Source: Acidimicrobiales bacterium (GTDB lineage: Bacteria > Actinomycetota > Acidimicrobiia > Acidimicrobiales > Bog-793). Taken from it: a stretch of 64,000 bases of DNA. The position numbers and the translations under genes were made by a program. The notes beneath the pieces were generated by a model. It was not told the origin of the DNA and made no database searches. It worked only from the letters and a program-made list of their open reading frames with translations. Positions 3,026 to 26,298 of this stretch are shown here, piece after piece; the stretch's first letter is position 1, and each line of letters begins with the position of its first letter. The stretch is taken from the NCBI GenBank assembly GCA_050010115.1, contig JBEKLQ010000002.1:46741-110740 (forward strand). Direction: 5' to 3'.

Positions 3026-3041
3026 CGGTACCCTCCTCGGA

Positions 3042-6466: not shown

Positions 6467-6494
6467 CGACCCTCCCCCCAACTCCGACATATTT

Positions 6495-9261: not shown

Positions 9262-9794
9262 CAAAGAAGCCCCCCGCCGTAAGCCAAGGACGCCCCGAGC
9301 AGCACGATGAACACCGCGATGACGAGATCGACCCTGGTAATGAGCGACACCCGGTTTGCCGCCGCCCGCATGACCTCGAGCCGCTCGGCCACGCCAGCTC
9401 CTCCTGCGGGGGCGCTCGCCCGTCGAGCGAGCCGCGGCCGCAGGACGAACGTGATGATGGCGCCGTTCACCACGAGCACGGCCCACAGGACGATCATGCC
9501 GAGGAGGGTTTGCCCGTAGCTGGTGGTGAGGAACTTCATGCCGCGCAAGCTGTCCTGATCCGACAAGGAGAAGAACAGGAGCAGCCCGCTGATCGGGAAC
9601 AGCGCCAGCGCTCCCCACACCAGGACCAGGAAGCGGTCGGCGGAGCGTTGGCCGATGACTTGCGCTTGGGAGGGGGGAACGTAGGACTGGGCCGGCCGGA
9701 GTACGAATTCCATGGCAACCGACCCTCCCACGTACACGGCGACGGCGAGGAGATGGAGGTACGAGGCGAAGATCTGCATAGCGCTCGAGGTCAT
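9261..9794 (-). CDS. 4-TM membrane protein, paralog A (unknown function)
   Basis: 177 aa with four hydrophobic helices. ATGA overlap (9791-9794) with the upstream gene. Confidence 0.75.
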   Translation of the reverse strand: MTSSAMQIFASYLHLLAVAVYVGGSVAMEFVLRPAQSYVPPSQAQVIGQRSADRFLVLVWGALALFPISGLLLFFSLSDQDSLRGMKFLTTSYGQTLLGMIVLWAVLVVNGAIITFVLRPRLARRASAPAGGAGVAERLEVMRAAANRVSLITRVDLVIAVFIVLLGASLAYGGGLL

Positions 9795-11254
9795 CGTGCG
9801 GCCTCCGTGGGATCGGGCTCTCCGGGATGCCAGACGGGGAAGTGGGCGTCGATCGCCGGCGTGATCGGATAGGCGCCGCCGTCAGTTGCGTAGAACTGTC
9901 GGTAGTAAGCGGGATCGGCGTGGTGGACCTGAGCCGAGAACTTGGCGCGGACCGGGCTCACGTACGCCGGGCAGCAGCCGTATCGATCGACGATGTACTC
10001 GACCGTGCGGATCGCCGCCGCCTCGGTGCGGTCGGAGATGTACGAACGCGGGTTCTCGAGGAGCTCCCGACGGGTCGCCTCATTGAAAGGGCCGGCAGCC
10101 CCGTCGCCCCGGCTGAGCGGGGCACCGGGCTGGTAGCGGAGCTCCTTCACATACCCGATCGCGTCGGCCGCCGTCGGGAACCGGGGGGACGGGACGACGA
10201 CCGGCTCCAGGATCCCAGGGAGGCCGAGGCAAGTGACGGTGCGGGAGGGGTTACGGGTGGGATCCCGCTCGAGGAAGGCAAAACCTAAGCCGCTCGCGAC
10301 CTCCGGGTAGGCGCCGAGGAGGAGGTCATCGGCGTACGAGCCGACCGGCCAAGCCCCGAGCCCGAGCGCCTCGGCAGCGAGGCGCACGTTCTGGACGACG
10401 CAGCCGACCTGTCCGGCGTGGAGGAGCACGGCGAGCTCGTCGAACACTGGGATCGGGAAGCCGGCTTCGAGAAACCCCGGCCCGATGAACTCTTCGCACC
10501 CCGCCGGCTTCTCCGCGTCCATCAGGTAGAAGCCTGACCACTCATACGACGTGAGCAACAGGTTGAACCACTCGAGTCCGACGTCTCCGACGGGGAGGAA
10601 CCACGTACTCCCCGGCCGGTTCAGGTTGTACTGCCCTGGACCGAGCGGGTTGACGTTGTGAGTCCCCTCGGGCGCGCTGAACCACCCGACGTCCGGACGG
10701 TGTTCGCTGAGCCGCGTCCGGCCGCGACGGTACCAGTCGAGGATCTTCCAGTAGTCGCCGGTGCCGGCGATCTCGACGGGCACCGGGCTCTCCCGTACCG
10801 GCCGGTAGAGCCAGGTACCGCCGTCGTTGATCAGGAAGAGGTCAACCGAGCGATCGTTGGAGGAAGACGGAATCGTCCGGCCCGCCGACGACAGCAAGCT
10901 GGATAGGGCGCCGTGGACGGGGATGTCCGCCAGCACGATGCCATTCGGGCCGAGAGCGGCCCAGGCCACGAGCGCCTCTTCCACCTCCGACAGCGGAACC
11001 GGCAGGGACTGGGAGGCGTATGCGAGCGGGCCCTCCGGCTGGACGACACTGCGCCCGCTCGACCATTCGAATGTCTCAGCCATCCCGGTCTCCGAGCGGT
11101 AGCCGAGCCCCATGCGCCGTGTCCGCAGCGTTGAGAGCACGCTGAACAGCGGCGGCGTGGCCTCGAAAGCTCGGGCGATCTGCGCCTGCTCGGCGGCCGT
11201 GATGCCCGCGACACCTCGTTGGTCGGCGGCGGGTGGCTGATACGTGTCGGTCAT
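9791..11254 (-). CDS. Large nitroreductase-superfamily-like protein (possibly SagB/ThcOx-like), partner of the orphan Mo subunit
   Basis: 487 aa. The segment …LLHAGQVGCVVQNVRLAAEALGLGAWPVGSYADDLL… resembles the conserved nitroreductase-fold helix-strand motif, and the N-terminus has …LRTRRMGLGY…. ATGA overlap with the alpha2 stop (11251-11254). The family assignment is tentative. Confidence 0.55.
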   Translation of the reverse strand: MTDTYQPPAADQRGVAGITAAEQAQIARAFEATPPLFSVLSTLRTRRMGLGYRSETGMAETFEWSSGRSVVQPEGPLAYASQSLPVPLSEVEEALVAWAALGPNGIVLADIPVHGALSSLLSSAGRTIPSSSNDRSVDLFLINDGGTWLYRPVRESPVPVEIAGTGDYWKILDWYRRGRTRLSEHRPDVGWFSAPEGTHNVNPLGPGQYNLNRPGSTWFLPVGDVGLEWFNLLLTSYEWSGFYLMDAEKPAGCEEFIGPGFLEAGFPIPVFDELAVLLHAGQVGCVVQNVRLAAEALGLGAWPVGSYADDLLLGAYPEVASGLGFAFLERDPTRNPSRTVTCLGLPGILEPVVVPSPRFPTAADAIGYVKELRYQPGAPLSRGDGAAGPFNEATRRELLENPRSYISDRTEAAAIRTVEYIVDRYGCCPAYVSPVRAKFSAQVHHADPAYYRQFYATDGGAYPITPAIDAHFPVWHPGEPDPTEAAR

Positions 11255-14034
11255 CTGCGCCTCCGCTCGACATCGACGAGGACGGCTCGATCACTCGGGA
11301 CGGGCTGCCAGCCGAAGGGCAGATACCGCAGGTGCCCGTACCGCCCGACGAGGTGCAGCCACTTGACGAGCCCTGGCTCGATTTCGTTCGACCCACGCCA
11401 TCCGGCGAACATGTGGGGTTCGAACCCGTTGTAGGAGATCACCTGGCCGGGCCTGACGCGTCCGGCCAGCCGCGCCATCGCCCGGAATTCGCCGTGATCG
11501 TTGAAGACGCGGATCTCGTCGCCGTCGGCGATCCCCCGCCGGCCGGCGTCGGCAAGGTTGAGGATCACGAGGGGCTGGCCTCGGTGCGTCTCGAGCAGGG
11601 CCCGATTACCCATGCTCACTGAATGGATCGTCCAGCGCGAGTGGCCACTCGTGAATACGAGGGGGTAGTCACCGCCCGCTTTCGGCGGCTCCTTGTGCCG
11701 CGGAAGCGCCTCGTCCGCCTCGAGGAACCATGGGTGGTCGATGTAGAACTGGGCCCGGCGGGTCAGCGTAGGGAACGGCACGCCCCGCTCGGCGTGCCAC
11801 TGGTACGCCGTGAGCACCTTCGAGGGCGAGACGTCGGTCGCGACCGACAGACCCGGCGCGAACGCCCCGAGCCCGGTGCTGCGGACGGTACCGGTCGCCT
11901 TCAAGGTGTCCACGGTGGTACCGGGCGGGAGGGTGCCTGCCTCGACGGAGTCGCGCACCCACTCGTCGACGACCGCTTCCTCCTCGACGAACGCCCCTGC
12001 CGCCGTGTACGCATCCGCCAACCGGTCGAGCCGGCGGGTCTGGCGGCGGCCGTCCAGATACTCTGTCTGGCCCCGCTCGGCGGCGAGGCGCTCCACCCGC
12101 TCGCTGAGACGCCGGAAGATCTCCCACTCCGATTTGGACTCGCCTCTCGGCGGGACGGCGGCGTCGGAGAACCCGATGTGGAACGTGTGGGTTATGGCGT
12201 ACTGCAGGTTCGTGCGCTCGTACTGCATCACCGCGGGCAGCACGAGATCCGCATGGAGCGCGGTCGAGGACATTCGCGAGTCGATCACGATCACCTTGTC
12301 GAGCTTCGGCCACAGCTCGCGCAGCAGCGTGGAGCTGCCACCCCGGGTCCGGCGGATCGGGTTCGAACCGACAGCGAAGAACACCTGCGGCTCGACGGAG
12401 GACCCTGGCCGCGTCAGACCTCCCCACCAGCCGCGCTGCACGGCCTCGGTGAGGTACTCGTCGAAGGTGCGCCGCATCGTCGGCTCGGCCCACTCGGCCC
12501 GGTTCCACGCTTCCCGGTAGCCCCCGTGGTGGTAGTTGAAGAAGACCGGAGGAGTCGAGGTGCCACTCGCTACAGCCATCTGTAGGAGTTGGTTCCCCGC
12601 GATCTCGTCGGTGGCGTCCGGATCCCTATCCTTCACCGACGCGACGGCAGCCTCGATACCGTCGAGGAGCCTGGCCGTCTCTTCGATCCCTCCCTTGGAC
12701 TTCATGCCGAAGAGGAGGTAGCCGTCGAGTCCGGCGAGGGCGAGCCCTTGGATGCCGGTACCGGGACGGCCCCAGTTCCCCGAGAGCGCGAGGAGCAGGC
12801 ACATCGCCCGCTCCATCAGGTCGCCGTGGAAGTACTTCGGGGTATTGAAGCCTTCGAGGATCTTCGTCGGCCGGGATGCGACCAACCGGGCGACATGGCG
12901 GATCGTGTCTGGGGCGACGCCGCAGACCTCAGCCGCGCGTTCGGGCGTGTACTCCTCGAGCCTCCGGGCCAGGAGCTCGAAGACCGTCGTGACCTCGGCT
13001 TCGGAGCCGTCGACGAGCGTGACAGTCCAGGTACCGCGCAACTCCGGGCTCTGATCGATCGCCAGGCTGTCGCGGCGCGCCGGCACGAGCCCGGCACCGT
13101 CCAAGTAGTGGTAGAAGCGGTCCTCACGCTCGTCGGCGACGACGTCGTTCCCGCGGAGGAACCGCCCGGTGGCCGTCTGCACGAGCAGCGGTAGGTCGGT
13201 CTGGCTCACGACAAAACGCTCGTCCATCAGTCCCTCGTCGACGATCGTCTTGCACATCGCAAGGGCGAGAGCGGCGTCAGTGCCCGGGCGGACCGGGACG
13301 TACAGGTCCGAGAACACCGCCGAGGCGTTGACGTCCGGGGCGATCGCGACCACAGTGGCGCCGTGGTAGCGGGCCTCGCTCACGTAGTGGAAGTAAGGGA
13401 TCGACGTATAGGCGGGGTTCGAGTGCCAGAGCAGGAGCAGGCCGGCGTGGAATGTGTCGTCGACAGTGCTGGCGCACGAGAACTTTCCGAACGTGATGTG
13501 CTGACCGGTGGGCAGATCGTTGACGAGGCCGTTGGCATCGAGTGTGACGGCACCGATCAAGCCCGCGAACCGCATGAACGCTGCCTGCGTCATGAGGCCG
13601 CCCTCGACGGTCTCCTCGAAGATGATCGACTCCGGCCCTTCGAAGTCGATCGCGTCGAGCAACGCCTCAGCCACCTCCGTGAGCGCCTCGTCCCACGAGA
13701 TGATCTCCCAGGACCCGCTGCCCCGCTCGCCGACTCGCCGGAGCGGCTGCAGAACGCGGTCCTCGCCGGTCAGCTGGAGTGAGTAGGCGCTGCCCTTCTG
13801 GCACCCGAGCGGGTTCAGGTCGGGCACGCCCTGCTCGATGATGTCGAACACCCCACCCTGCTCCTCGAACAGCACGTCGCCGTCGCGGACGAAGACACGG
13901 TACGGGCAGGCAGCAAGACAGTTCAGGCAGTGCGTCCCCCAGGCCACGCGGTCCCAGGTCCAGCGTCGGCGGTAGCCGTCCTCTGTCGACGTCGCTTTGG
14001 GTGTCGCAGTCGCAGTCGCTGTCCCTATACCCAT
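11251..14034 (-). CDS. Molybdopterin (Mo-bisPGD) oxidoreductase alpha-subunit paralog (alpha2), orphan, no Tat signal
   Basis: Clear paralog of 3647-6466, sharing RWTWDRVAWGTHC, YRVFVRDG, RRVGERGSG, ISWDEA, RRAQFYIDHPW and PGQVISYNG. FS0 motif HCLNCLAAC…NPLGC. No adjacent beta, gamma or delta genes. Confidence 0.9.
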   Translation of the reverse strand: MGIGTATATATPKATSTEDGYRRRWTWDRVAWGTHCLNCLAACPYRVFVRDGDVLFEEQGGVFDIIEQGVPDLNPLGCQKGSAYSLQLTGEDRVLQPLRRVGERGSGSWEIISWDEALTEVAEALLDAIDFEGPESIIFEETVEGGLMTQAAFMRFAGLIGAVTLDANGLVNDLPTGQHITFGKFSCASTVDDTFHAGLLLLWHSNPAYTSIPYFHYVSEARYHGATVVAIAPDVNASAVFSDLYVPVRPGTDAALALAMCKTIVDEGLMDERFVVSQTDLPLLVQTATGRFLRGNDVVADEREDRFYHYLDGAGLVPARRDSLAIDQSPELRGTWTVTLVDGSEAEVTTVFELLARRLEEYTPERAAEVCGVAPDTIRHVARLVASRPTKILEGFNTPKYFHGDLMERAMCLLLALSGNWGRPGTGIQGLALAGLDGYLLFGMKSKGGIEETARLLDGIEAAVASVKDRDPDATDEIAGNQLLQMAVASGTSTPPVFFNYHHGGYREAWNRAEWAEPTMRRTFDEYLTEAVQRGWWGGLTRPGSSVEPQVFFAVGSNPIRRTRGGSSTLLRELWPKLDKVIVIDSRMSSTALHADLVLPAVMQYERTNLQYAITHTFHIGFSDAAVPPRGESKSEWEIFRRLSERVERLAAERGQTEYLDGRRQTRRLDRLADAYTAAGAFVEEEAVVDEWVRDSVEAGTLPPGTTVDTLKATGTVRSTGLGAFAPGLSVATDVSPSKVLTAYQWHAERGVPFPTLTRRAQFYIDHPWFLEADEALPRHKEPPKAGGDYPLVFTSGHSRWTIHSVSMGNRALLETHRGQPLVILNLADAGRRGIADGDEIRVFNDHGEFRAMARLAGRVRPGQVISYNGFEPHMFAGWRGSNEIEPGLVKWLHLVGRYGHLRYLPFGWQPVPSDRAVLVDVERRRR

Positions 14035-14068: not shown

Positions 14069-14097
14069 ATCCTAGTTATTCATGCGAGAGTTGTAAA
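14069..14097 (-). promoter_or_regulatory. Candidate internal promoter in an AT-rich island: -35 TTTACA (14092-14097), 17-nt spacer, -10 TAGGAT (14069-14074)
   Basis: Minus strand reads TTTACA-actctcgcatgaataac-TAGGAT, about 35 nt upstream of the alpha2 ATG (14034). It overlaps the last codons and stop (14072-14074) of the upstream ORF. It is a conspicuously AT-rich patch in GC-rich DNA. Confidence 0.45.
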
Positions 14098-14680
14098 TAA
14101 ATAGCTCGAGCGGGCGACGGGGCATCCGGGAAGACCATGCTCGGGCAGAGCACGCCGCTGCAACAAGGCCTGTCGTGAGCAAGGCGACGAGCATGACTCG
14201 CTGTCGGCGGCGGGCGGCGTCCTCCCCGACCGCCGGCGCCGTGAGGAGGAAGCCAGCGGCCGCGAGCCGCCCCGGATGCCCGTGCGGCTCGATGCTCACG
14301 CCACCCGCCCGCCATGAAGCGAGCGGCGACTGCTGCCCGCTGCACACGTGAGCGAGCTCGAGCCACTCCCCGGCCATGCCGGGAACGGCCGCACCGGGCT
14401 CATCGTCCTCCCCGCCAGCACGGTCAGCACCGCCAGCGCGGTCAGCACCGCCAGCGCGGTCGGCGACCTTGAGCGAACGGCCGAGGAACGAGACCGTCAC
14501 CGACAAGTCATGATCGGATGCGGTCAGGCCCACGTCGCCCCTGGTCCTGGACGCGACCATGGCCCGGGCCTTCGAGTCGGCGAGGTTCTGCCGCAGGAGA
14601 TCCGCGACCATGGCGGCGAGCCCGGACGCCTGTTCGCCTCCCTCGACGGTGACCGCCGGCGTCAGATGCGGCGCCACCAC
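14072..14680 (-). CDS. SCP2-like sterol/lipid-carrier domain protein with internal (ADRAGG)3 repeat and C-terminal hydrophobic tail
   Basis: SCP2-like pattern: …GLAAMVADLLRQNLADSKARAMV…GDVGLTASDHDLSVTVSFLGRSLKVAD…GMAGEWLELAHVCSGQQSPLASWRAGGVSIE. The C-terminus carries VMLVALLTTGLVAAACSA. The start is uncertain (GTG at 14680 or ATG at 14611). The rest of the 501-aa track ORF is an antisense shadow of the next gene. Confidence 0.5.
   Translation of the reverse strand: MVAPHLTPAVTVEGGEQASGLAAMVADLLRQNLADSKARAMVASRTRGDVGLTASDHDLSVTVSFLGRSLKVADRAGGADRAGGADRAGGEDDEPGAAVPGMAGEWLELAHVCSGQQSPLASWRAGGVSIEPHGHPGRLAAAGFLLTAPAVGEDAARRRQRVMLVALLTTGLVAAACSARAWSSRMPRRPLELFIYNSRMNN
14415..14468. repeat. 18-bp tandem repeat, about 3 copies (ccagc[a/g]cggtcagcaccg)
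   Basis: Direct reading: units at 14415-14432, 14433-14450 and 14451-14468 (the third is diverged). It encodes ADRAGG x3 on the minus strand. Confidence 0.85.
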
Positions 14681-16257
14681 GGCTTCAGGCCGAGGTCGTC
14701 GGCGATCACCTGCAACGCGTTGTAGGCCGGGCCGAACGTGATGAACCCATGTGGGTGCTGGGTGGACCCTGCCAGGTAAAGAGCGTCGATCGGGGTCCGG
14801 TACTGGGAGAGCTCGGGCAGCGGCCGCTGGTCGAGCAAGTTGTCGAGGCTGATCTCGCCCATCATCCAGTCGCCCCCGACCATGTTGACCATCTTCCGGG
14901 CGATCTCGAGCGGGGTGTAGGGCGCCCAGTCCAAGATGACATCGTCGGTGATGTTCGGCGCGTACCGCCGCCATGCCCTGATGCAGCGCTCCCCGTACCA
15001 GCGGGCGATCGAGTCCCACTCCCCCTCCCCGCCGTCGGCCAGGGCAAAGGGTGCGAACTGGCGCAGCAGGCCGGTGAAGTGCCCGGCTGGCGCGTCGGTC
15101 GGATCGTAGAGCGTGTTCACCGCGGCGTTCGGGCGGGGGTCCGGGAGTAGGCCGCTTCGCACCAGCCTCCAGTCTTCGTCGAGATCCGCCGGCGACCCGT
15201 AGCCCAGGTTCACCACCCACGCCCGGTCGACGTCGGGGTCGAAGGAGGCCGCTTCGTAGGCGGGCGGAGCGGTCATCGCCAGATGCACGGAGAACAACGT
15301 CCAGTCCTTGTGCTTGACCGCCGTCTTCACGCGCTCGGCCAACTCGGGTGGCACGTCGCCGGGGTTCAGGAAGCGGAGAAAGGTCTGTTCGACGTCGACG
15401 GTCGACGCGACGAGCTTTCGCGCCACGAGCTCGGTGCCGTCCGAGAGCCGCACGCCGACCGCCCGATTCCCGTCGACCACGATGTGGTCGACCTCGGCGT
15501 CGCTGATCATGGTCCCGCCGTGCTGAGCGAGATCCCGCCACAAGGCGTGGGCGATGCGGTGCGACCCGCCGACGCAAAGGTGCCAGTTGTCGATCTTGCC
15601 GACGAGGAGCGGGAAGCCGATCGCAAGGCCTTTGACGTCGGTCGTGTAGCCGCAGATGGCGGCGTGGAAAGCAAGGTGCGCCTTGATCTTCGGGTGCTTG
15701 AAGTGCTGGTCGAGGAACTCGTCGATCGACTCTCGGCGGAGCTTCACCGACAGGAACTCGGAGCGCTCGTCGACGCCGAAGCTCGCGAGTGCCTTCGTCA
15801 GCTCCTTCACCGACATCGGAGGCTGGTACATGAGCGTGCCGAGCAGGAGATCGACGTAGCCGTGCGCCTCGAGGTGGAGACGGCGGAACGTCTCGGCGTC
15901 CTCCTCGTCGAAGCGGGCCATCGACTCCACGGTCCGCTCCAAATCGGCGTGCACGGTGAGCGCCGTCCCGTCGTCGAAGACCGAGGCCATCTGCACCTCC
16001 GGGCGGACGTACTCGGCGCCGTGGCGGCGAATCTCGAGGTCGCGCACCGGCGGGGCGAGATCGACGAAGGTGTGGTAGTTGGCATGCACGTTGTGGAGGA
16101 AGCCCGAGAGCGTGAGCTCCTCGGTGGAAAGCCCCCCACCCTCTTCATGACGGCGTTCCAGGACGACGGTGTCGAGCCCGCTCCGGGCGAGATAGGCGCC
16201 GAGCGTCAGTCCGTTGTGGCCCGCACCGACGATGATCGCGTCGTAGGTCTCACGCAT
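14662..16257 (-). CDS. CrtI/phytoene-desaturase-family FAD-dependent oxidoreductase, paralog 1
   Basis: YDAIIVGAGHNGLTLGAYLARSGLDTVVLERRHEEGGG (Rossmann GxGxxG plus acidic end). C-terminal …IDALYLAGSTQHPHG…. ATG at 16257 (MRETYD…). 8-nt overlap with the upstream SCP2 gene. Confidence 0.85.
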   Translation of the reverse strand: MRETYDAIIVGAGHNGLTLGAYLARSGLDTVVLERRHEEGGGLSTEELTLSGFLHNVHANYHTFVDLAPPVRDLEIRRHGAEYVRPEVQMASVFDDGTALTVHADLERTVESMARFDEEDAETFRRLHLEAHGYVDLLLGTLMYQPPMSVKELTKALASFGVDERSEFLSVKLRRESIDEFLDQHFKHPKIKAHLAFHAAICGYTTDVKGLAIGFPLLVGKIDNWHLCVGGSHRIAHALWRDLAQHGGTMISDAEVDHIVVDGNRAVGVRLSDGTELVARKLVASTVDVEQTFLRFLNPGDVPPELAERVKTAVKHKDWTLFSVHLAMTAPPAYEAASFDPDVDRAWVVNLGYGSPADLDEDWRLVRSGLLPDPRPNAAVNTLYDPTDAPAGHFTGLLRQFAPFALADGGEGEWDSIARWYGERCIRAWRRYAPNITDDVILDWAPYTPLEIARKMVNMVGGDWMMGEISLDNLLDQRPLPELSQYRTPIDALYLAGSTQHPHGFITFGPAYNALQVIADDLGLKPWWRRI

Positions 16258-16714
16258 TGGCTGTCTCGCACCCGAGCACGTACGGGGGGGCACCTCGTGG
16301 CCAGGTCGTCTCGATGGTTCGGTATGCCTCGAGGAGCGCCTTCACGTGGTCGGCCTGGCGCATGAGGAAGCGCATGTCTCCCCGGACCCGGATGGTCCCC
16401 TTGAGGGCGGCGTCGATCGGGTCCAACAGCCCGGCGGCGACCTCGTCAAAAGCGGCCGCCGGTCCGAGGAACCTGAAGCTCAGCTCCTGCGTCTCGTCCG
16501 GCTCGCCTTCGCGGTACCACGAGCACTGACCGTCGTCGATCTGGACGAGGAAGTGGCGCTCCCCGCCCGCTTCCACGTACGGGGACACGGCGTCGCCGAC
16601 GATGTCGACCGCGATCAGTATGGAGCCCTTCGGCACTTCTCGAAGGTTCGCCACCCTGACGTTGATCGCGGCGCGCACCGCTTCGAACCACTCCTCGGTG
16701 TAGACGTCGGCCAT
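16250..16714 (-). CDS. SCP2 sterol-binding-domain protein
   Basis: 154 aa: MADVYTEEWFEAVRAAIN…ILIAVDIVGD…HFLVQIDDGQ…FRFLGPAAAFDEVAAGLLDPIDAALKGTIRVRGDMRFLM. This is a typical SCP2 pattern. The TGATG junction at 16714 links it to the upstream gene. Confidence 0.8.
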   Translation of the reverse strand: MADVYTEEWFEAVRAAINVRVANLREVPKGSILIAVDIVGDAVSPYVEAGGERHFLVQIDDGQCSWYREGEPDETQELSFRFLGPAAAFDEVAAGLLDPIDAALKGTIRVRGDMRFLMRQADHVKALLEAYRTIETTWPRGAPPYVLGCETANA

Positions 16715-18336
16715 CAGTACGACCTCCCCTCCGCGACCGGGCTCGGCAAGCCGAGGTCTTCGGCGATGACCTTGTAGGCGTTGTAACCACAGGCCGAGTG
16801 CACGCCTCCACCCGGGTGGGACGAGGGCCCGCAGAAGTACAGGCCTCCGATCTCCGCCCGATAGCTCGAAGCCTCCGGGAACGGACGGTTCACCCCGAGC
16901 TGATCGGGGGCGAACTCTCCATTGGAGAAGTCGCCCTCCCGCATCAGGTTCTTGCGTTCGATCTGATCCGGTGTGTACAGCTTGTGAGCCATGACGTTGG
17001 CGGGGGTCATGTTCGGAGCGGACTCGCGCCAGGTAGCGAGGAACCTGTCGTTGTAACTCGCGCGAACTTCTGCCCACTCGTCGGCGGAGAGCGCGCTGGC
17101 AGGCGGAAGGAAGTACCACCCGGTCGCCGCGTGGTAGTTCGGCGGCGCCTGGGCCGCGTCCCAGATCGAGTTGACCCACGTTGCCGCTTTCGGCTCGGGG
17201 AGCTTGCCGCTGTAGGCGTCGCGAATGTAGGCGAGCATGTCCGCCGCGCTGTCGTAGCCCACGAGCGTGTAGAAACACCGGTCGATGTCGGGGTTCCAGG
17301 CGGCCGACTTGTAGGCTGGCGCCTCGTGGATGCAGAACATCGGGGTGCCGAGCACGTGGCTCGGGCCATAGCGGAACGCCTTCGCCCTCCGGACCCAACG
17401 GTCGCTCAGGTGTTCCTCACCCACCAACTCGAGCAGCGTCTGGCGGATGTCGGCATTGGACGCGACGAGCCGCTCTGCCCGGATTTCCCGGCCACCTCGC
17501 ACCCGCACCCCGACGGCGCGCTCATCCTCGACGAGGATTCGTTCCACCGCCGTGTTCTCGATGAGGTCGACCCCTTCGCGGTAGCAGACCTGTGTCATCG
17601 CCTTGGCGAGCGTGTGGGTCCCTCCCCGGCACAGCTTCCAGTTGCCGAGCGTCCACATCACATAGGTGAGGAAGCCGATCCCCAGCCCTTCCGTATCGAT
17701 CGGTAAGCCCCACTCGACGGAGCAACGGTAGAGCAGCGCCCGGACCTCCGGCGTCTCGAACAGCTCGTCGATGACGACCTTGGGGGACTTGACGGCGAAA
17801 TGGGCTCCGACACCGAGGTCACCCCAACCGAGCTCGAGGGTGGCTCCTTCGCTGTTGCGGTCGATCGGCTTCGGTGGGTTGTAGAGATCCGTCGCGACAA
17901 GTTCCTCCACCTCCACCGCCCGGCGCTTCAACTCGACGAACGTATCCGCGTCCACCTTCGAGTACGCGGCGATGCTCTCGCGTGTCCGCTCGAGGAGGTC
18001 CGGTCGGTACACGATGATCGGCGGCCGCCCGTCCGCGAACGCGATCCCGGCCTGCGCTTCGGGCATGACCGTCCGCAGTCCGACCTCCTCCAGACCGAAG
18101 TCCCGGATCATCGGCATGATGTCGAAGAACTCCATGTACTGGGCGTGCATGTTGTGCCGGAAGCCTGGCAGCACGGGCTCCTCGGTGTTCACGCCACCGC
18201 CTTCTTCGTGACGACGTTCGATGACCACTGTGGAGAGGCCCGCTCGCTGTAGGTACGCGGCAAGGCAGAGCCCGTTGTGCCCGGCCCCGATGACGACGGC
18301 GTCGTAGGTCGTCGTGATCGAAGTGGTGTCGCTCAT
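16714..18336 (-). CDS. CrtI/phytoene-desaturase-family FAD-dependent oxidoreductase, paralog 2
   Basis: YDAVVIGAGHNGLCLAAYLQRAGLSTVVIERRHEEGGG. C-terminal …IGGLYFCGPSSHPGGG…. ATG at 18336 preceded by GAAGGGA. Confidence 0.85.
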   Translation of the reverse strand: MSDTTSITTTYDAVVIGAGHNGLCLAAYLQRAGLSTVVIERRHEEGGGVNTEEPVLPGFRHNMHAQYMEFFDIMPMIRDFGLEEVGLRTVMPEAQAGIAFADGRPPIIVYRPDLLERTRESIAAYSKVDADTFVELKRRAVEVEELVATDLYNPPKPIDRNSEGATLELGWGDLGVGAHFAVKSPKVVIDELFETPEVRALLYRCSVEWGLPIDTEGLGIGFLTYVMWTLGNWKLCRGGTHTLAKAMTQVCYREGVDLIENTAVERILVEDERAVGVRVRGGREIRAERLVASNADIRQTLLELVGEEHLSDRWVRRAKAFRYGPSHVLGTPMFCIHEAPAYKSAAWNPDIDRCFYTLVGYDSAADMLAYIRDAYSGKLPEPKAATWVNSIWDAAQAPPNYHAATGWYFLPPASALSADEWAEVRASYNDRFLATWRESAPNMTPANVMAHKLYTPDQIERKNLMREGDFSNGEFAPDQLGVNRPFPEASSYRAEIGGLYFCGPSSHPGGGVHSACGYNAYKVIAEDLGLPSPVAEGRSY

Positions 18337-18347
18337 CGCACGTCCCT

Positions 18348-18752
18348 TCAACCGGCCCGGAGACCGCCGCCGAAGCCGCCGGCGGCTCGTGACCCAACGG
18401 CGGGCTTGCCGTCGCTGGCGGAACCGAACTTCTCGGCCGTTTCGAGCTTCTCGGCCCTCTCTCGGCGCCCTGTCTTCTCGGCCTTGTCGACCTTCCCATC
18501 CCCCAGCGTCTCGGACGGATGGGCCTTGCGGTGGAAGATCCAGCGGGCGCCGAGCCCGAGCGTGTGGCGGTTGACGCCGACACGGAGCATCCCGGGGATG
18601 TCACCTGGCGCGATGCGGATCGAGAAGTCCCAGGTCACCGGTTCATGAATCGTGCCCTCGATGACCACTTCGTTGCCATCCCGCTTGATCTCGTACTCGC
18701 GGAAGTCCATGACGAGCTCTCTGCGGCCAAGGCCGCGTGAACGAAGTTTCAT
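18348..18752 (-). CDS. Small hypothetical protein (compact N-domain plus K/E-rich and G-rich tail)
   Basis: ATG at 18752 overlaps the stop of the upstream flavoprotein (ATGA, 18749-18752). Sequence: …MDFREYEIKRDGNEVVIEGTIHEPVTWDFSIRIAPGDIPG…KVDKAEKTGRRERAEKLETAEKF…GGFGGG. No family recognised. Confidence 0.55.
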   Translation of the reverse strand: MKLRSRGLGRRELVMDFREYEIKRDGNEVVIEGTIHEPVTWDFSIRIAPGDIPGMLRVGVNRHTLGLGARWIFHRKAHPSETLGDGKVDKAEKTGRRERAEKLETAEKFGSASDGKPAVGSRAAGGFGGGLRAG

Positions 18753-20407
18753 GCGAGGTAGGCCTCCTGGTATCGCTGAACGAATCGGGGCATCTGCCAC
18801 CATCGGTTGGCCGCGAGGTCGTCCACGACCGAGCCGGCGGCGATGTAGCCGGGCCCGCCGATCACGAGCCCGCCCGGGTACGAGGAGGCACCGCAAAGAT
18901 AGAGGCCTTCGATCGGCGCCCGTCCGCCGATGCAGCTGTCATGGGGCCGGAACACGCCCATCTGGAGCGGGTCGTAGTGCCCGTGCTTGATCGACCCGCG
19001 AACCATGTTGGGCAAGCGGGTCTCGATGTCGAGAGGGCTCTCTGCGTTCATCATCACGACGTTCTCCGCCGTGAGGTTCGGGGCGTACTCGCCCCACCGC
19101 TCGAGCAGCGACGCCGCCAGGTCCTGGCGACGGGCTTCCCAGCCACCGGTGACGTCATAGGGGGCGTGAATCTGCAGGAACCCCACGTGATGGCCGGGCA
19201 CTCGCGGCAGCGTCGGGTCGTACCTCGTCTCGATGGTGGCGTGACCTCCGGGCGCCTGGTCGAGATTTCCTGCCGCGACCGCCCTCCATTGGTCGAGCAG
19301 CTCGTCCGTCGAATCGAAACCCAGCACCGTCATGAACGCATCGTCCACCCATGGATCGTCGGAGCGGTACGAGGGAGCCTGCTTGCAGGCGACCGTGAGG
19401 GTGAAGAACGACCAGCGGTCCCACTCCCACCGCTCCGCTGTCCGGCGCAACTCGGCAGGGACCCACTCCTCTTCGATCAGCTCGCCGAAGGTCTGCGGAG
19501 GCGGGAGGCTCGAGAGCACGGCCTTCGCCCGGATGACATGACCGTCGAACAGTTCGACGCCGGTCACGTGGCCCTCCGTCACCAGGATCTGTGTCACCTC
19601 GGCGTTGTCGATCACCACTCCGCCCGCCCGGTGGATCTCTCTCGACAACGCGCCGGCGAGCTTGTGCGACCCGCCGTAGCAGACGGCCTTGTTCATGGCA
19701 CGGTCGACCAGCATCGGCACCATGAACCCCAGCCCGCTGTCTTCCGGGTCGAGCCCCCACATGCAGGCCACGTAGAGGAGGAGCATCTTCAGGCGGTCGT
19801 CCTCGAAGAGCTCGTCGATGATCTCGACGGGCGACATCTCGGTCAGCCGCAACGCCTCTTTCCCCACCTCCGTGCGCTCGAGAGCCTCGATCATGTCGAT
19901 CGGGTGCAAGGGCGGCAGGTACGTCCCCGGCGCGACCACCTCCTCGACGATCCGTCGCCACGTCCGCATCACACGTCCGAAGGCGCGGGCGTCGGTTGGG
20001 GAGCGCTTCGCGATCGAGTCCTTCGTGTCCTCGATCTGGTGGCACAGGAGGAGGCTCGTCCCGTCCCGGAAGACCGCCGCGGTCTGCGCGTTCGGCTTGA
20101 CGAACGTGAGTCCGTGCTGGGAAAGGTCGAAGTCCCGGAGCACGGGCATGTAGTCGGTCATCATGTGGTAGACGGCGTGGGTGTTCGTATAGAAACCCGG
20201 GAAGAGCGTCTCCTCGGTCGCGAGGCCTCCCCCGATCTCGTGGCGCCGTTCGACCAGCACGGTTCGCAGGCCGGCCCGCGCGAGGTAGGCGGCTGCGATG
20301 AGCCCGTTCGGGCCGCCGCCGACGACGCACACGTCGGCGTCGTACTCGTGGGGGAACTCCTCGAGGATCTTCTCAGTTGGCTCGATGCCGTAGCTCCGGC
20401 GGGTCAT
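18749..20407 (-). CDS. CrtI/phytoene-desaturase-family FAD-dependent oxidoreductase, paralog 3
   Basis: Internal ATG at 20407 (MTRRSYGIEPTEK…). ADVCVVGGGPNGLIAAAYLARAGLRTVLVERRHEIGGG. C-terminal …IEGLYLCGASSYPGG…. ATGA overlap with paralog 4 (20404-20407). Confidence 0.85.
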   Translation of the reverse strand: MTRRSYGIEPTEKILEEFPHEYDADVCVVGGGPNGLIAAAYLARAGLRTVLVERRHEIGGGLATEETLFPGFYTNTHAVYHMMTDYMPVLRDFDLSQHGLTFVKPNAQTAAVFRDGTSLLLCHQIEDTKDSIAKRSPTDARAFGRVMRTWRRIVEEVVAPGTYLPPLHPIDMIEALERTEVGKEALRLTEMSPVEIIDELFEDDRLKMLLLYVACMWGLDPEDSGLGFMVPMLVDRAMNKAVCYGGSHKLAGALSREIHRAGGVVIDNAEVTQILVTEGHVTGVELFDGHVIRAKAVLSSLPPPQTFGELIEEEWVPAELRRTAERWEWDRWSFFTLTVACKQAPSYRSDDPWVDDAFMTVLGFDSTDELLDQWRAVAAGNLDQAPGGHATIETRYDPTLPRVPGHHVGFLQIHAPYDVTGGWEARRQDLAASLLERWGEYAPNLTAENVVMMNAESPLDIETRLPNMVRGSIKHGHYDPLQMGVFRPHDSCIGGRAPIEGLYLCGASSYPGGLVIGGPGYIAAGSVVDDLAANRWWQMPRFVQRYQEAYLA

Positions 20408-22152
20408 GACACCCCTCCGGCGACCGACGCCAGCTTCGCGTCCGTGCCCGACTCGGACCGCGAGCCCGGCTTGGCAGCGTCGGAGATGTACCACTCCGAC
20501 GGGTACCACCAGCTCGCCGGTTCCACGATGCCGTCGTCGATGAGGATGTGCATGAGGTTGTACGGGACCGCCATCAAGCAGAGCCCACCCGGATGCGACG
20601 TCTGGTTGCACAGGTAGAGACCGTCGATGGGCGTCCGGTAACGCGACAGCTCGGGCAGCGGCCGGCTCGAGAACCACTGGTCCTCCGACTGCCGGATCGC
20701 ATACCAGTTCCCTCCGCTCATGCCCGCGTTCCGGAACTCCGAGTCATACGGCGTGTTCACGAAGACATCGACGATGTTGTCCGAACCCATGTTCGGGGCC
20801 ATTCGTTCGAGGAGCGCGAGCGCAGCCTTCGTGATCTCGTCCTTGTGGCGGTTGATGCCCTCCGGCCCGGTCACGTCGTACTGAGGGGGCGGCACCTCCA
20901 GATACACCGGTGAGAGCAGGTGGTAACCGTCAGGGGTGCGGGTCTCGTCGTAGGGGTCGTGGGTGACGATCATCATCGTGAGGTGCTCGGGCGAGAGTTC
21001 CGGGCTCCGCCGGAGCGAGTAGGCGTCACGCGTCTGGGCGTGGAAGAACTCCATCGAGTCAGCTGGCGCCATCACACACGAGGGGTACACGTCCTCGGGG
21101 AAGGCGTCGGGCCGGCCGTGGTACTTCGGCAGCTCACGGCAGAGCACGTGCATGACGAACAGGCTGCCGCCCTTGAGCGAGATGTCCTTGACGCGCTGGG
21201 TGAAGCCGACGTCGAGGTGCTGCCGGCCGATGAGGTTCAGGAACGTCGTCTTCACGTCCACGCCCGAGACAACGGCCTTGTCGGCCCAGATCGTCTTCTC
21301 GGGGAAGGCCGCCTCGTCCGAGAGGCGGACGCCCACGGCCCGGCCGTTCTGCACGATGATCTCGCCCACCGGTGCATTCGCGAGGATGCGCGCACCGTGT
21401 GCCAGCGCGCAGCGGATGATGGAGTGTGCGTAGGCGTGCATGCCGCCGCGGGGCGACCCCGACGCGTAACCGACCAGCATCCCGCCGCCCATGGACGGCA
21501 GGAGCATCCCGTCCCAGTCGGGATGCGCTCCGCAGTACCAGGCAGCGAAGGCTGCGGCCACCCGCGCCGGCTCCCACGGCACGAACTCGTCGAGGAAGTC
21601 GGTGTAGCTCATATCGAGCAGTCGCGGGCTGTAGAGCCCGGGCAGGTGCTTTCGGAAGACGTTCCACCACGGCAGGTCCCCGGCCTCGACCTCGAGCTCG
21701 GGTGGGTGCGGCGGCGTCCAGAACAGGGCTCTCAGCAGCTCACGCAGCGATGGCTCGTCGAGGGCCTCCATCGGGCTGAAGGCGCCTTCGCTGGTCCCGG
21801 CGTACCGTCGGCGCGACTCCTCGCCAATGTCAGGCCGCCAGCGGCTCCCCATGTTGGCGGCGACCCCGTCGAGAGTGACGATGCCCGACAGCGACTGGTA
21901 GTAGACCATCCGGAACCCGTACTTCCACAGCTCGAGCTGATCGAAGCCCGGAGCCGCCCCGCCGTACAGGTAGGTCGCGTGCGGGTCGATCCGGAAGCCC
22001 GGCCTCGGCTCGGTGTTCTCCTGGCCACCGCCGCACTCGGGTCTCGCTTCCAGGACGCACACGCTGAGTCCTGACTTCGCGAGGTAGGCGGCAAGTGTGC
22101 TGCCGTTGTGCCCACCTCCGACGATGACGACGTCGAAGCGCGCATCCTGCAT
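20404..22152 (-). CDS. CrtI/phytoene-desaturase-family FAD-dependent oxidoreductase, paralog 4
   Basis: ATG at 22152 (MQDARFDVVIVGGGHNGSTLAAYLAKSGLSVCVLEARPECGGG) preceded by a GGGGGGA SD. C-terminal …IDGLYLCNQTSHPGG…. Confidence 0.85.
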   Translation of the reverse strand: MQDARFDVVIVGGGHNGSTLAAYLAKSGLSVCVLEARPECGGGQENTEPRPGFRIDPHATYLYGGAAPGFDQLELWKYGFRMVYYQSLSGIVTLDGVAANMGSRWRPDIGEESRRRYAGTSEGAFSPMEALDEPSLRELLRALFWTPPHPPELEVEAGDLPWWNVFRKHLPGLYSPRLLDMSYTDFLDEFVPWEPARVAAAFAAWYCGAHPDWDGMLLPSMGGGMLVGYASGSPRGGMHAYAHSIIRCALAHGARILANAPVGEIIVQNGRAVGVRLSDEAAFPEKTIWADKAVVSGVDVKTTFLNLIGRQHLDVGFTQRVKDISLKGGSLFVMHVLCRELPKYHGRPDAFPEDVYPSCVMAPADSMEFFHAQTRDAYSLRRSPELSPEHLTMMIVTHDPYDETRTPDGYHLLSPVYLEVPPPQYDVTGPEGINRHKDEITKAALALLERMAPNMGSDNIVDVFVNTPYDSEFRNAGMSGGNWYAIRQSEDQWFSSRPLPELSRYRTPIDGLYLCNQTSHPGGLCLMAVPYNLMHILIDDGIVEPASWWYPSEWYISDAAKPGSRSESGTDAKLASVAGGVS

Positions 22153-22364: not shown

Positions 22365-22856
22365 TCAGCTGGCCGTGGGGGCGCGGCCGGCGCGGCGGGC
22401 GGCGGCGGCGGCTTCGCGGCGGGCGGCGAGCTTGGCGATCTCCCGCTCGCGACGCAACGTGTCGGAGAGGCTCGTATGGTCGAGTGCGTTGATGGCCGCC
22501 GAGCGGCCGTGGCTCCACGCAGCGTGGAGGGCGCACTCAGGACGGTGATCGTTGCACCGACGGGAGTCGAGGAGGCAGTGGGAGATCTCCAGGCGGCCCT
22601 CCAGGGACTCGATGATCTCCAGCATGGAGATGTCCTCGGGGTTCCGCGCCAAGGTGCAGCCCCCGTTCCTACCCGGCAAGCAGAGCAGCAAGCCCGAGCG
22701 CGAGAGCAGGTTCATGATCGTCGGCACGTTCCCGGACGAGATCTCGCAAGCCCGAGCCAGGTCCGCGGCGGTCACCCGCTCGCCTCTCGAAAGAGAGGCC
22801 ATGTACAGCATGAGGCGGATGCCGTACTCGCTTCTCTTCGTGAGGGACAGATGCAT
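22365..22856 (-). CDS. Rrf2-family transcriptional regulator (paralog 2, three-Cys Fe-S-type)
   Basis: MHLSLTKRSEYGIRLMLYMA…AADLARACEISSGNVPTIMNLLSRSGLL…GRNGGCTLAR. Cys region C-x6-C-x6-C-x2-H (HCLLDSRRCNDHRPECALH). Start taken at the ATG at 22856; the track start at 22868 is an alternative. Confidence 0.9.
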   Translation of the reverse strand: MHLSLTKRSEYGIRLMLYMASLSRGERVTAADLARACEISSGNVPTIMNLLSRSGLLLCLPGRNGGCTLARNPEDISMLEIIESLEGRLEISHCLLDSRRCNDHRPECALHAAWSHGRSAAINALDHTSLSDTLRREREIAKLAARREAAAAARRAGRAPTAS

Positions 22857-23043
22857 ACCTCGAAACATTAGGTCGGATCGCGAGGATTCCAGTGCCCAGG
22901 CACTTCGCGATCGATGCGACCAGAGAAATTAGCCATTTACACGCTAGAGTTAGAGGCTTCATTGCCCTGCGACCTGTGAGGGAGCAGGAGCATTAGGGGC
23001 AACAGGGGAGGCCAGGCGTGCACGACACGCAGGGGGCAAGCTG

Positions 23044-24234
23044 ATGGCGATCGTTGACATCGAGCCGGGGCTGCAGGACATCGAAGAGGAGGTCAGGGAC
23101 ACCGCCCATCGCTTCGCTGAGGAGGTGATGCGCCCGGCAGGAGCGACGCTCGACAGGCTGGCCGACCCCGCCGACGTGATCGCGTCCGGGTCAGTGCTCT
23201 GGTCGGTCTTCGAGAAGTACCGTGGCCTTGGGCTGCAGGCGATCGAGGAGGACCCGACTGTCGAGCCCGCCACGCGTGCTCGCATCCAGGCCATCGTCGC
23301 AGAGGAGCTTGGATGGGGAGACTCGGGCCTTGCGGTCAGCTTGGGTGTCGCCGCGTTCCCGAGGTTGCTCGCGACGATGTCGGGCAATCAGTCACTGGTG
23401 GACCGCTTCGACGACGCCATCGGCTGCTGGGCAGTCACCGAGCCTGACCACGGCAGCGACGTCCTCGCCTTCACCGAGCGCCCCTTCCGCGATCCGTCCC
23501 TGAAGCCGAACTGCGTCGCGCGCGTGACTGGCGACGAGCTCGAGATCAGAGGACAGAAGTCGGCCTGGGTGTCGAACGGCTCCGTCGCCACGGCGGCGGC
23601 ACTGTTCTGCACCCTCGACGCAGGCCAAGGCTTCGCCGGTGGGTGCGTGGTACTCGTCCCGCTCGACCTACCCGGTGTGAGCAGGGGCCAACCGCTCGAC
23701 AAGCTGGGACAGCGGGCGCTCAACCAAGGCGAGATCTTCTTCGACGGAGTACGAGTCCCTCTCGACCATCTCGTGGTCCCGCCCGAGCTCTACCCCATGA
23801 CGGTGGAGCTCGTGCTCAGTGTCGCCAACGCCGGCATGGGAACGATCTTCGTCGGCGTCGCCCGTGCGGCCCTCGAGCACGCCACCGCCTACGCCCATTC
23901 CAGGGTTCAGGGAGGCGTCCCCATCTTCGAGCACCAGAGCGTGAGGTCGCGTCTGTTCAAGATGTTCATGAAGGTCGAGGCGGCAAGAGCGCTCGCGCGG
24001 CGGGTGGCCGTCTTCAACGCCTTGAACCCGCCGCTCATCCAGTACTCAATAGCGTCGAAGGTGTTCTCGACGACGACGGCGTTCGAGGTCGCGAGCGAAG
24101 CGGTCCAGATCTTCGGTGGCAACGGGCTCAGCCGCACGTACCCCGTCGAGAAGCTCCTTCGCGACGCGAGAGCGTCGATGATCGAGGACGGCTGCAACGA
24201 GGTCCTCGGCCTCGTCGGCGCGTCCCGCCTGTGA
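23044..24234 (+). CDS. Acyl-CoA dehydrogenase family protein
   Basis: 396 aa. …WAVTEPDHGSD…, …IFGGNGLSRTYPVEKLLRDARASMIEDG… is the typical ACAD layout. Confidence 0.85.
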   Translation: MAIVDIEPGLQDIEEEVRDTAHRFAEEVMRPAGATLDRLADPADVIASGSVLWSVFEKYRGLGLQAIEEDPTVEPATRARIQAIVAEELGWGDSGLAVSLGVAAFPRLLATMSGNQSLVDRFDDAIGCWAVTEPDHGSDVLAFTERPFRDPSLKPNCVARVTGDELEIRGQKSAWVSNGSVATAAALFCTLDAGQGFAGGCVVLVPLDLPGVSRGQPLDKLGQRALNQGEIFFDGVRVPLDHLVVPPELYPMTVELVLSVANAGMGTIFVGVARAALEHATAYAHSRVQGGVPIFEHQSVRSRLFKMFMKVEAARALARRVAVFNALNPPLIQYSIASKVFSTTTAFEVASEAVQIFGGNGLSRTYPVEKLLRDARASMIEDGCNEVLGLVGASRL

Positions 24235-24246
24235 GTAGGTGAGACG

Positions 24247-25035
24247 ATGCAGCTGCGAGAGGTGATCGGCAGGCGCCGATCGATCCGCTTCCACATGCCC
24301 CACAAGCCGGTGGAGCTCGAGAAGGTCCAGCGCATGCTCGAGGCGGCCCGGCTTGCTTCGCACTGGGGCAACGTCCAGAGCCTACGGGCTGTCGTCGTCG
24401 TCCGCGACGAGGTCAGCCCCGATGTCGCGGAAGCGCTGTGGGCGCCGGTCGCAGGGTTCCAGATCAAGCTCGCTCCAGTCGTGATCGTCTGGTACCTCGA
24501 CACCGCCGCCGTCGACGAACAGGCCAACCGGCTGCGCGAGCTCCTGGACGCCGGGGCGCTCGGCTTCGGCCCGGACAAGAAGGAGGCGCTCGAGGACAAG
24601 CTGATCCCGTTTTTCGAGCAGATCCGCGAGGTGCTGAAGCAGCCCGGGCTCGGTGAGGTGGACTGCGGCCAGGGCATCGCACAGGCGACCTTGATGGCGT
24701 TCGAGCAGGGGCTCGGGACGTGCTGCCTGGCGACCCCGAAGGCACAGGAGCTGCGCGAGAGCCTCGGACTTCCCGAGACGGCACGGGTCCTTCTCCTCCA
24801 GACCGTCGGCTACCCGGCGGAGTCCCCGGAGGCAGGTGGGCAGCGACCACGACAGCCCTTCGAGAAGCTCTTCCACCTGAACCGGTACGGAGAGCCCTTC
24901 CCACGGTCAGCCGAGGTCGTGGAGGAGCTCAGGCGGGACGGGATGTTCACTGCTCCTGCACCGCTTCCCTACCGCGAGGCGGAGCTCGAGTACCTAAAGC
25001 ACGCCCTTGGCCTGAAGGGCCACGGGCTCTTCTGA
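24247..25035 (+). CDS. Nitroreductase-family protein
   Basis: MQLREVIGRRRSIRFH… (RRS.R motif) and …GQGIAQATLMAFEQGLGTCCL…. Confidence 0.7.
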   Translation: MQLREVIGRRRSIRFHMPHKPVELEKVQRMLEAARLASHWGNVQSLRAVVVVRDEVSPDVAEALWAPVAGFQIKLAPVVIVWYLDTAAVDEQANRLRELLDAGALGFGPDKKEALEDKLIPFFEQIREVLKQPGLGEVDCGQGIAQATLMAFEQGLGTCCLATPKAQELRESLGLPETARVLLLQTVGYPAESPEAGGQRPRQPFEKLFHLNRYGEPFPRSAEVVEELRRDGMFTAPAPLPYREAELEYLKHALGLKGHGLF

Positions 25036-25046
25036 GAGGAGCGCGC

Positions 25047-26279: not shown

Positions 26280-26298
26280 CCGGCTCGGGGAGGCGGCG

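Follow-up and report, generated by a model that had tools for sequence, protein, structure and literature searches.

Isoprenoids, sterols included, are persistent in anoxic soils and sediments and, to our knowledge, the organisms that attack them without O2, and the means by which they do so, are largely unknown outside Sterolibacterium. We know of only two characterised members of the flavoprotein family concerned, limonene dehydrogenase and delta-24-steroid desaturase (here delta-24-SD), both from cultured Betaproteobacteria. The present analysis deals with four tandem flavoprotein genes resembling these enzymes, termed P1 to P4, on the minus strand at positions 14662-22152 of a 64,000-nt stretch of DNA (the window; approximately 68% G+C) from an Acidimicrobiales bacterium, and with the small genes that accompany them. 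The delta-24-SD of Sterolibacterium denitrificans has a pair of paralogous subunits that share 26% identity and are relatives of CtmA/CtmB, with flavin mononucleotide (FMN) bound covalently to His57 and His58 in the motif G-F-L/R-X-N/S-T/L-H-A; alpha2 or beta2 homodimers have been proposed as the catalytic unit within its a4b4 complex, and the enzyme acts just before the Mo-dependent C26 hydroxylase of the stigmasterol route (Zhan et al. 2024, PMC11061730). CrtI-type enzymes carry non-covalent flavin adenine dinucleotide (FAD) (PMC11061730). The limonene dehydrogenase CtmAB of Castellaniella defragrans (CDM25290/CDM25289) is built from heteromeric phytoene-dehydrogenase-like flavoproteins that are 27% identical (PMC4109377).

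P1 to P4 are four long open reading frames (ORFs), and the same genes are found in public calls on identical metagenome contigs; the contig is present in the peat samples JGI 3300039309 and 3300042150. An earlier interpretation made without database searches (the sequence-only reading) had picked them out as four tandem CrtI-family paralogs with conserved motifs at both ends, P3 and P4 being ATGA-coupled and followed by a small ORF. All of the quoted motifs are present (Table 1), the P4/P3 junction is indeed an ATGA overlap (GTCATGACC), and the small ORF is real and likewise ATGA-coupled to P3, its true start at 18752 giving a protein of 134 aa. Transcription runs in the order P4, P3, small ORF, P2, SCP2a, P1, X202, with P2 and P1 as the last two flavoprotein genes. 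The small ORF and P2 are separated by an 11 nt gap, P2 and SCP2a share a TGATG overlap, and the SCP2a/P1 and P1/X202 junctions are overlaps of 8 and 19 nt, respectively. This tight packing, through ATGA and other overlaps, runs on for five genes beyond X202 and thereby links 12 genes from P4 to an AMP-binding-like gene; the spacing between X202 and the following gene, MoA1, is 37 nt. The P4 start at 22152 is backed by the orthologs, and GxGxxG lies at residue 12 of the protein.

The explanation that we favour, and consider fairly probable, is that two distinct flavoenzymes of the CtmAB/delta-24-SD family, each with several subunits, are encoded here, which would carry out O2-independent allylic oxidation of isoprenoid chains. 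Enzyme A would comprise P4 (alpha-type), P3 (beta-type) and the 134-aa protein, and enzyme B would comprise P2, P1, the soluble SCP2a and the SCP2-type X202, which would be tail-anchored in the membrane. The resemblance to delta-24-SD lies in two adjacent paralogous subunits (57-63 kDa, approximately 26-27% identical) with an N-terminal Rossmann motif and a flavinylation His in G-F-x-x-N-x-H-A (published residues 57/58), and in the presence of ethylbenzene dehydrogenase (EBDH)-type genes nearby, as an EBDH-family Mo hydroxylase belongs to the same pathway there. In contrast to delta-24-SD, P4 belongs to a separate sub-clade common to Chloroflexota, and the 134-aa gene is coupled to the pair here, while it was not found beside the closest delta-24-SD orthologs (L014 and L105). 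Furthermore, nothing in the published enzyme corresponds to P1 and P2, and twin-arginine (Tat) signals are missing from the Mo subunits found here. The bacterium concerned is an actinobacterium known from peat-type metagenomes and not from culture, and its closest named relatives are metagenome-assembled genomes of Acidimicrobiales and Actinomycetota from samples of this type. CtmAB has the same His motif in the published motif comparison (PMC11061730) and carries out O2-independent oxidation of an allylic methyl group, and its gene order, A and B followed by small hypothetical genes (ctmC, ctmD), recalls the small ORF found here. The ctm cluster differs in encoding a 2Fe-2S ferredoxin together with a reductase (ctmE, ctmF), of which none were found here, and, as described, in having no SCP2 partners. 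CrtI, CrtD and CrtO share the superfamily fold, FAD-binding motifs at both ends and a chemistry taking place beside existing isoprenoid double bonds, but need neither a paralog as partner nor SCP2 genes or Mo hydroxylases to function.

The assignment of the four proteins was assessed by pairwise comparison, family models and a tree, the first and last of which the sequence-only reading had proposed as checks. P1 to P4 are 26.5-37.9% identical over their full length (BLASTP, E 3e-34 to 1e-108), a paralogy far beyond chance. Pfam yielded only generic FAD/NAD-binding and amine-oxidase domains, and the top NCBIfam match of all four was the CrtO ketolase model NF045689, at 138.8-227.3 bits (E 2e-40 to 3e-67) against a cut-off of 1000 bits; the crtI_fam model TIGR02734 scored 46.9-89.8 bits against 238.1. 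The nearest sequences in the PDB, CrtD (4rep, E 2e-8) and CrtI (4dgk, E 2e-6), aligned with the N-terminal half only. Each of the four proteins carries the motif G-F-x-x-N/D-x-H-A, as GFLHNVHA in P1 (H58), GFRHNMHA in P2 (H64), GFYTNTHA in P3 (H77) and GFRIDPHA in P4 (H58), and some non-His positions depart from the published consensus (Y in P3; D and P in P4). The His of the motif is retained in all orthologs with a recovered N-terminus (47 to 58 for P1, 35 for P2, 11 for P3 and 12 for P4) and is absent from the CrtO-like relatives sampled; a covalent flavin on this residue is putative for P1 to P4.

A neighbour-joining tree of 49 sequences (family members and outgroup from the related loci, 510 columns) was built with delta-24-SD as its only characterised member, CtmA and CtmB being likened through their published description. 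It split a CtmAB/delta-24-SD-type clade containing P1 to P4 from the CrtO-like outgroups at 94% bootstrap. The sequence-only reading had favoured CtmAB-like heteromeric enzymes over a carotenoid desaturase set, and this is supported by the tree, the His motif, the low CrtI and CrtO scores and the separate occurrence of the two pairs in other phyla. Within this clade, P3 fell among the beta subunits (79% bootstrap) and P4 with delta-24-SD alpha (54% bootstrap), while P1 and P2 each formed a clade of their own. Judged by these comparisons, P1 to P4 belong to the CtmAB/delta-24-SD branch of the CrtI superfamily.

Indels and tree together identify P4/P3 as a canonical alpha/beta pair. P3 is 39.9% identical to the beta subunit of the Sterolibacterium delta-24-SD (E 4e-125) and P4 27.7% identical to the alpha subunit, and the two are 26.5% identical to each other. 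The weak bootstrap of the P4 assignment is backed by rare shared changes: a 5-residue insertion (GVRLSDEAAFPEKTI compared to GV.L.DG-----) is restricted to P4, its orthologs, and delta-24-SD alpha and its relatives, and both the missing glycine of LYLCG and a WW..W extension at the C-terminus are shared by P4, its orthologs, and delta-24-SD alpha and its relatives, with no occurrence in any other clade or in the outgroup. P4/P3 is a new sub-clade of a known family, with an extra conserved small partner. This partner, the 134-aa protein, has 197 homologs, which share an almost invariant N-domain of 78 residues followed by a variable disordered tail. It matched no Pfam family, and a Foldseek search of its AF2 model (core pLDDT approximately 80, overall 60) against the PDB gave no match below E 0.18. 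With a hidden Markov model (HMM) of the family, the gene turned up exclusively next to pairs of the alpha/beta type, from several phyla and one archaeon (including L010, L013 and L108), which makes its product a good candidate for the third subunit of the pair or for an assembly factor.

P2 and P1 are adjacent, 38% identical, and both of beta-like architecture; their positions in the tree suggest two further old, separate clades of the family and not a recent duplication. Orthologs of P1 that are 60-92% identical occur in Actinomycetota, Acidimicrobiia and Myxococcota metagenome-assembled genomes (MAGs). That each of the two genes is followed by an SCP2-type ORF, as had been claimed, is borne out directly for SCP2a, which passes the Pfam model PF02036 with 23.6 bits against a gathering score of 21.3 (E 6.9e-5; orthologs 21.5-23.6 bits), has a conserved C-terminal T-x-W-P-x-G-x-P-P-Y and is of the soluble type. 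The window copy of X202 has no Pfam match of its own, because an 18-nt tandem repeat (14412-14461; 2.8 copies, 96% matches) encoding DRAGGA repeats interrupts the ORF and hides the match; the orthologs lack it, and a loop seems to have been enlarged by it recently, with the reading frame kept. At the family level the SCP2-type label appears to hold, because orthologs of X202 do match the Pfam model: 6 of 23 reach E <= 0.01 (best E 1.5e-8), one attains 27.6 bits, which is above the cut-off, and no rival family was found for the domain. An hhalign comparison of X202 with the SCP2a family gave a weak match (E 0.028), and an AF2 model based on 7 sequences was unusable (pLDDT 47). A single transmembrane segment is predicted at the C-terminus (residues 161-181).

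In five of the related loci (L103, L109, L113, L117 and L130), the X202-type protein runs on into a multi-pass membrane domain of approximately 300 aa. The two fused copies scanned, from two lineages (L113 and L130), match the COX15/CtaA haem-protein family (E 2.8e-30), and this fusion may be a clue to the electron destination of the flavoenzyme. No description of the P1/P2-SCP2 module was found in the literature searched, and as far as that literature shows the module of P2, P1 and two SCP2 proteins is undescribed, the family itself being known.

The distribution of these genes was assessed in two scans. A generic Rossmann pattern applied to a genome collection returned at least 80 loci, mostly distant CrtO-like ones with approximately 16 being informative, and a search of metagenomes that started from the SCP2a family gave 80; roughly 100 related loci were recovered overall. 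Among the matches listed, pairs of the P4/P3 type without P1/P2 occur in Dehalococcoidia/Chloroflexota (L008 and L009) and a true delta-24-SD ortholog pair in Binatia (L014). Other alpha/beta pairs were found in an unclassified bacterium (L010) and in Nitrososphaerales archaea (L013 and L015), accompanied by the small ORF in L010 and L013. P1/P2 and SCP2 genes without alpha/beta genes are present in Binataceae, Desulfobacteraceae and Dehalococcoidia (L019, L021 and L024), and a look-up of P1 orthologs added a Myxococcota MAG (L087). Each gene set thus also stands alone in other phyla, and the two would therefore be distinct enzymes. The sequence-only reading had likewise separated two sets, but the pairs are not equivalent, P4/P3 being alpha/beta and P2/P1 beta-like.

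The P2/P1/SCP2 module occurs in Actinomycetota, Myxococcota, Chloroflexota, Binatia and Desulfobacterota. P1-type and P2-type genes are both present in all 25 loci that have at least 3.4 kb on each side of SCP2a, and of 51 P1+P2 modules at least 39 contain a gene matched by an HMM of the X202 family; a number of those without a match lie on truncated contigs. The order of the genes varies, with P2-SCP2a-P1-X, X-SCP2a-P1-P2, P1-X-P2-SCP2a and P2-P1-X-SCP2a all represented, as well as SCP2a-P1-P2 and P1-P2-SCP2a. Such permutation, with the four genes kept together, favours one four-component unit over two flavoprotein-plus-carrier units.

The combination found in the window is a composite, recurring in full only in contigs 98-100% identical to it. 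The seven-gene flavoprotein block has approximately 11 related loci with flavoproteins 70-92% identical (including L018, L094, L100, L112, L114-L116, L120 and L122). In L105, P2-SCP2a-P1 lies beside true orthologs of delta-24-SD alpha and beta (57-63% identical) and further alpha-like paralogs, which strengthens the link to sterol-type side chains. In L108, the same three genes are accompanied by the small ORF, by a gene resembling P3 (49% identical) and by others with weak resemblance to alpha. The clusters of L105 and L108 are richer than that of the window.

Further variants of the flavoprotein family were seen. The archaeal pairs lie on MAG contigs (L013 and L015), so the family is not confined to bacteria, and the small ORF of L013 is located between the two genes of the pair. 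Another type of pair, the first member of which has a Rossmann variant (GGGNK/GGGSN), occurs in a Chloroflexota locus (L011) and in a Thermodesulfobacteriota locus from a tar biofilm (L012); where read, these first members have GFIANHCS or GFVGNTCS instead of GF..N.HA. L012 carries five family members on one contig.

A possible mechanism can be outlined from these observations and the surrounding genes. Each set would assemble as a hetero-oligomer, and the SCP2 proteins would hold the water-insoluble isoprenoid at the membrane and deliver it to the flavoproteins. Each flavoprotein pair may then take two hydrogens from an allylic position to form a conjugated alkene, or else add water to form an allylic alcohol. 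The EBDH-type Mo hydroxylases encoded downstream would hydroxylate the activated chain with water, after which it would be shortened by the products of the upstream genes for CoA ligase, acyl-CoA dehydrogenase and thiolase. Sterol side chains or other long isoprenoids are the most likely substrates, and the logic of the operon (flavoenzyme, water-dependent Mo hydroxylase, beta-oxidation) would, by analogy, be that of the published stigmasterol route.

The electrons probably pass to a membrane acceptor, either a quinone or a b-type haem protein. The sequence-only reading had reported no ferredoxin or ETF genes, and no stand-alone one was found among the scanned ORFs of the window. It had also suggested that the neighbouring Mo/flavin proteins might take part in the electron route. 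Because the Mo proteins belong to the EBDH-type hydroxylases, which act on the substrate, a part as partners in the pathway is more likely for them than one as electron acceptors. Only 3 of 14 modules have them as neighbours. A bolder interpretation, which we advance only tentatively and regard as possible at best, is that P2, P1, SCP2a and the anchored SCP2 form an undescribed and widespread four-component enzyme that extracts an isoprenoid from the membrane, oxidises it without O2 by means of two covalent flavins, and has a haem protein of the membrane as direct recipient of the electrons, this last step being hinted at by the COX15/CtaA fusion of the anchored SCP2 in some lineages. Together with the alpha/beta enzyme and cytoplasmic Mo hydroxylases, it could then constitute an ATP-independent anaerobic sterol or isoprenoid route unlike that of Sterolibacterium.

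With P1 and P2, the family gains no fewer than two additional clades of conserved subunits, accompanied by SCP2 carrier proteins, and the module is common in uncultured bacteria of peat, soil and sediment, where it sometimes lies beside EBDH-type Mo hydroxylases. The loci provide concrete gene sets for expression and assay as well as marker genes for O2-independent isoprenoid degradation in metagenomes.

Several observations weigh against an interpretation as two anaerobic isoprenoid-oxidising enzymes. P4 is only 28% identical to delta-24-SD alpha, in a clade with just 54% bootstrap, only synteny points to heteromer formation, and the Rossmann motif would suit FAD, while the characterised enzyme was reported with FMN. 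None of the genes of the window matched steroid-ring degradation families; there is only a generic 3-beta-HSD/epimerase-family protein at 35348-36448. In the close relatives L094, L115 and L122, the last SCP2 gene is followed by transposases and not by Mo genes; the transposase-like genes lie within approximately 3 kb downstream (L094 10051-11172, directly after; L115 9569-10903; L122 15532-16257), and mobile elements may have joined or separated the flavoprotein block and the Mo genes. Finally, of 14 complete P1/P2 modules with at least 4 kb on each side, only three adjoin a Mo alpha gene and another three alpha/beta genes, leaving eight with neither. Three modules sampled among these eight have mostly housekeeping neighbours (fumarase, BamA, an ABC transporter, a kinase); in the distant genomes L144, L152 and L154 this holds apart from a trio of thiolase, acyl-CoA synthetase and acyl-CoA dehydrogenase genes in L154.

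The autonomy of the module in those eight loci and its housekeeping neighbours, along with its very strong conservation across phyla (60-90% identity), the SCP2 accessory proteins known in O2-independent ubiquinone biosynthesis and the presence of a YceI-like protein of a polyisoprenoid-binding family nearby, would also agree with a role in which P2/P1/SCP2 modify an isoprenoid lipid of the cell itself (a quinone side chain, carotenoid, hopanoid or similar), the catabolic setting of the operon being secondary. We regard this as unlikely, since the module is accompanied by acyl-CoA synthetase, acyl-CoA dehydrogenase and SCPx-type thiolase or by Mo hydroxylases in the window, L018, L154 and L126-134, an Rrf2 regulator lies directly upstream in the window, as for an inducible operon, and the cluster contains no gene for isoprenoid-lipid biosynthesis, ispG and dxr belonging to the housekeeping stretch. 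Nor does it seem at all likely that P1 and P2 act as independent homo-oligomers, each with its own carrier (P2 with SCP2a, P1 with X202), in keeping with the duplicated flavoprotein-plus-carrier module of the sequence-only reading. An SCP2-type gene does directly follow each flavoprotein gene in the window, L019 and L087, and catalytic alpha2 or beta2 homodimers have been proposed for delta-24-SD (PMC11061730). This adjacency is, however, broken elsewhere (SCP2a-P1-P2, P1-P2-SCP2a, P2-P1-X-SCP2a and X-SCP2a-P1-P2), P1 never occurs without P2 or the reverse in the 25 loci with enough flank, and the two are old separate clades showing no recent duplication; a single four-gene module, permuted in order with its genes staying together, fits better than a duplicated one. 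The idea of ordinary carotenoid enzymes working as independent monomers (desaturases or ketolases of the CrtI, CrtD or CrtO type) draws on the CrtO model as the top NCBIfam match of all four proteins and on CrtD and CrtI as the nearest structures, but it is highly improbable: such a role was rejected because the CrtO and crtI_fam scores fall well short of the curated thresholds, the His that holds the covalent flavin in delta-24-SD occurs in all four proteins but not in the CrtO-like relatives sampled, and the tree splits the two groups at 94%. The structural matches, moreover, cover the N-terminal half only, and none of the scanned ORFs of the window matched a crtB, crtE or crtY family. Two multi-subunit enzymes of the CtmAB/delta-24-SD family thus remain the explanation that we prefer.

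Table 1. Positions of the flavoprotein genes, their partners and neighbouring genes in the window.
Feature	Position	Strand	Description
P1	14662-16257	-	531 aa; IVGAGHNG...ERRHEEGGG; C-terminal LYLAGSTQHPHG; second flavoprotein of pair B
P2	16714-18336	-	540 aa; VIGAGHNG...ERRHEEGGG; C-terminal LYFCGPSSHPGG; first flavoprotein of pair B
P3	18749-20407	-	552 aa; VVGGGPNG...ERRHEIGGG; C-terminal LYLCGASSYPGG; beta-type, pair A
P4	20404-22152	-	582 aa, 64 kDa; IVGGGHNG...EARPECGGG; C-terminal LYLCNQTSHPGG; alpha-type, pair A
Conserved 134-aa protein (small ORF)	18348-18752	-	after P3, pair A
SCP2a	16250-16714	-	154 aa; after P2; PF02036
X202	14072-14680	-	202 aa; divergent SCP2-type; after P1
Rrf2-family regulator	22365-22868	-	212 nt upstream of P4; PF02082, E 1.7e-29
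MoA1, EBDH-type molybdopterin alpha	11251-14034	-	927 aa; downstream of X202
Y487, two CopD-like 4-TM proteins, AMP-binding-like protein	7626-11254	-	four translationally coupled genes after MoA1
MoA2 alpha	3647-6529	-	second, complete EBDH-type set (1278-6529)
Gamma (EB_dh, PF09459)	3042-3650	-	MoA2 set
Beta FeS (Fer4_11, 4 FeS clusters)	1943-3025	-	MoA2 set
Delta chaperone (Nitrate_red_del)	1278-1931	-	MoA2 set
Acyl-CoA dehydrogenase, nitroreductase-family protein, SCPx-type thiolase, acyl-CoA synthetase	23044-27987	+	beta-oxidation set; divergent, upstream

The genes downstream of X202 resemble members of the type II DMSO-reductase family, namely EBDH and the dehydrogenases of steroid C25 and C26, in that MoA1 aligns over its full length (PDB 2IVF_A, E 3.8e-209, residues 8-924) and MoA2 is encoded with gamma, beta and delta genes. 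In contrast to these enzymes, neither alpha subunit has a Tat signal, MoA1 has no beta or gamma of its own, and its match to TIGR03479 (825 bits) is below the cut-off of 984.75. Since no Tat signal was found in MoA1 or MoA2, the Mo enzymes would be cytoplasmic. The two are 48.6% identical, and a single beta/gamma set may serve both of them; in Sterolibacterium, several Mo alpha paralogs reportedly do so. Mo-alpha genes adjoin P1/P2 modules in several phyla (L024, L087, L126, L132, L134, L166 and L169). Among the coupled genes after MoA1, Y487 (487 aa) had no informative PDB or family match and only a faint nitroreductase/SagB similarity, and it recurs with one CopD-like and the AMP-binding-like gene near Mo and P1/P2 genes in L126 and L134.

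The Rrf2 gene ahead of P4 is likely the regulator of the operon, and its position upstream of P4 or P2 is kept in L094 and L130. The thiolase, acyl-CoA synthetase and acyl-CoA dehydrogenase set is also found beside the module in L018 and L154. From approximately 47 kb on, the window holds mostly housekeeping genes (ispG, dxr, rseP, cdsA, frr, pyrH, tsf and rpsB), with ispG and dxr at 48.7-52.6 kb. A second Rrf2-family regulator (6499-6954) lies ahead of the second Mo enzyme set. The YceI family is known for polyisoprenoid binding, and the YceI-like protein of the window (29241-30155) is encoded just past the acyl-CoA synthetase, a position that it also occupies in L001 and L002.

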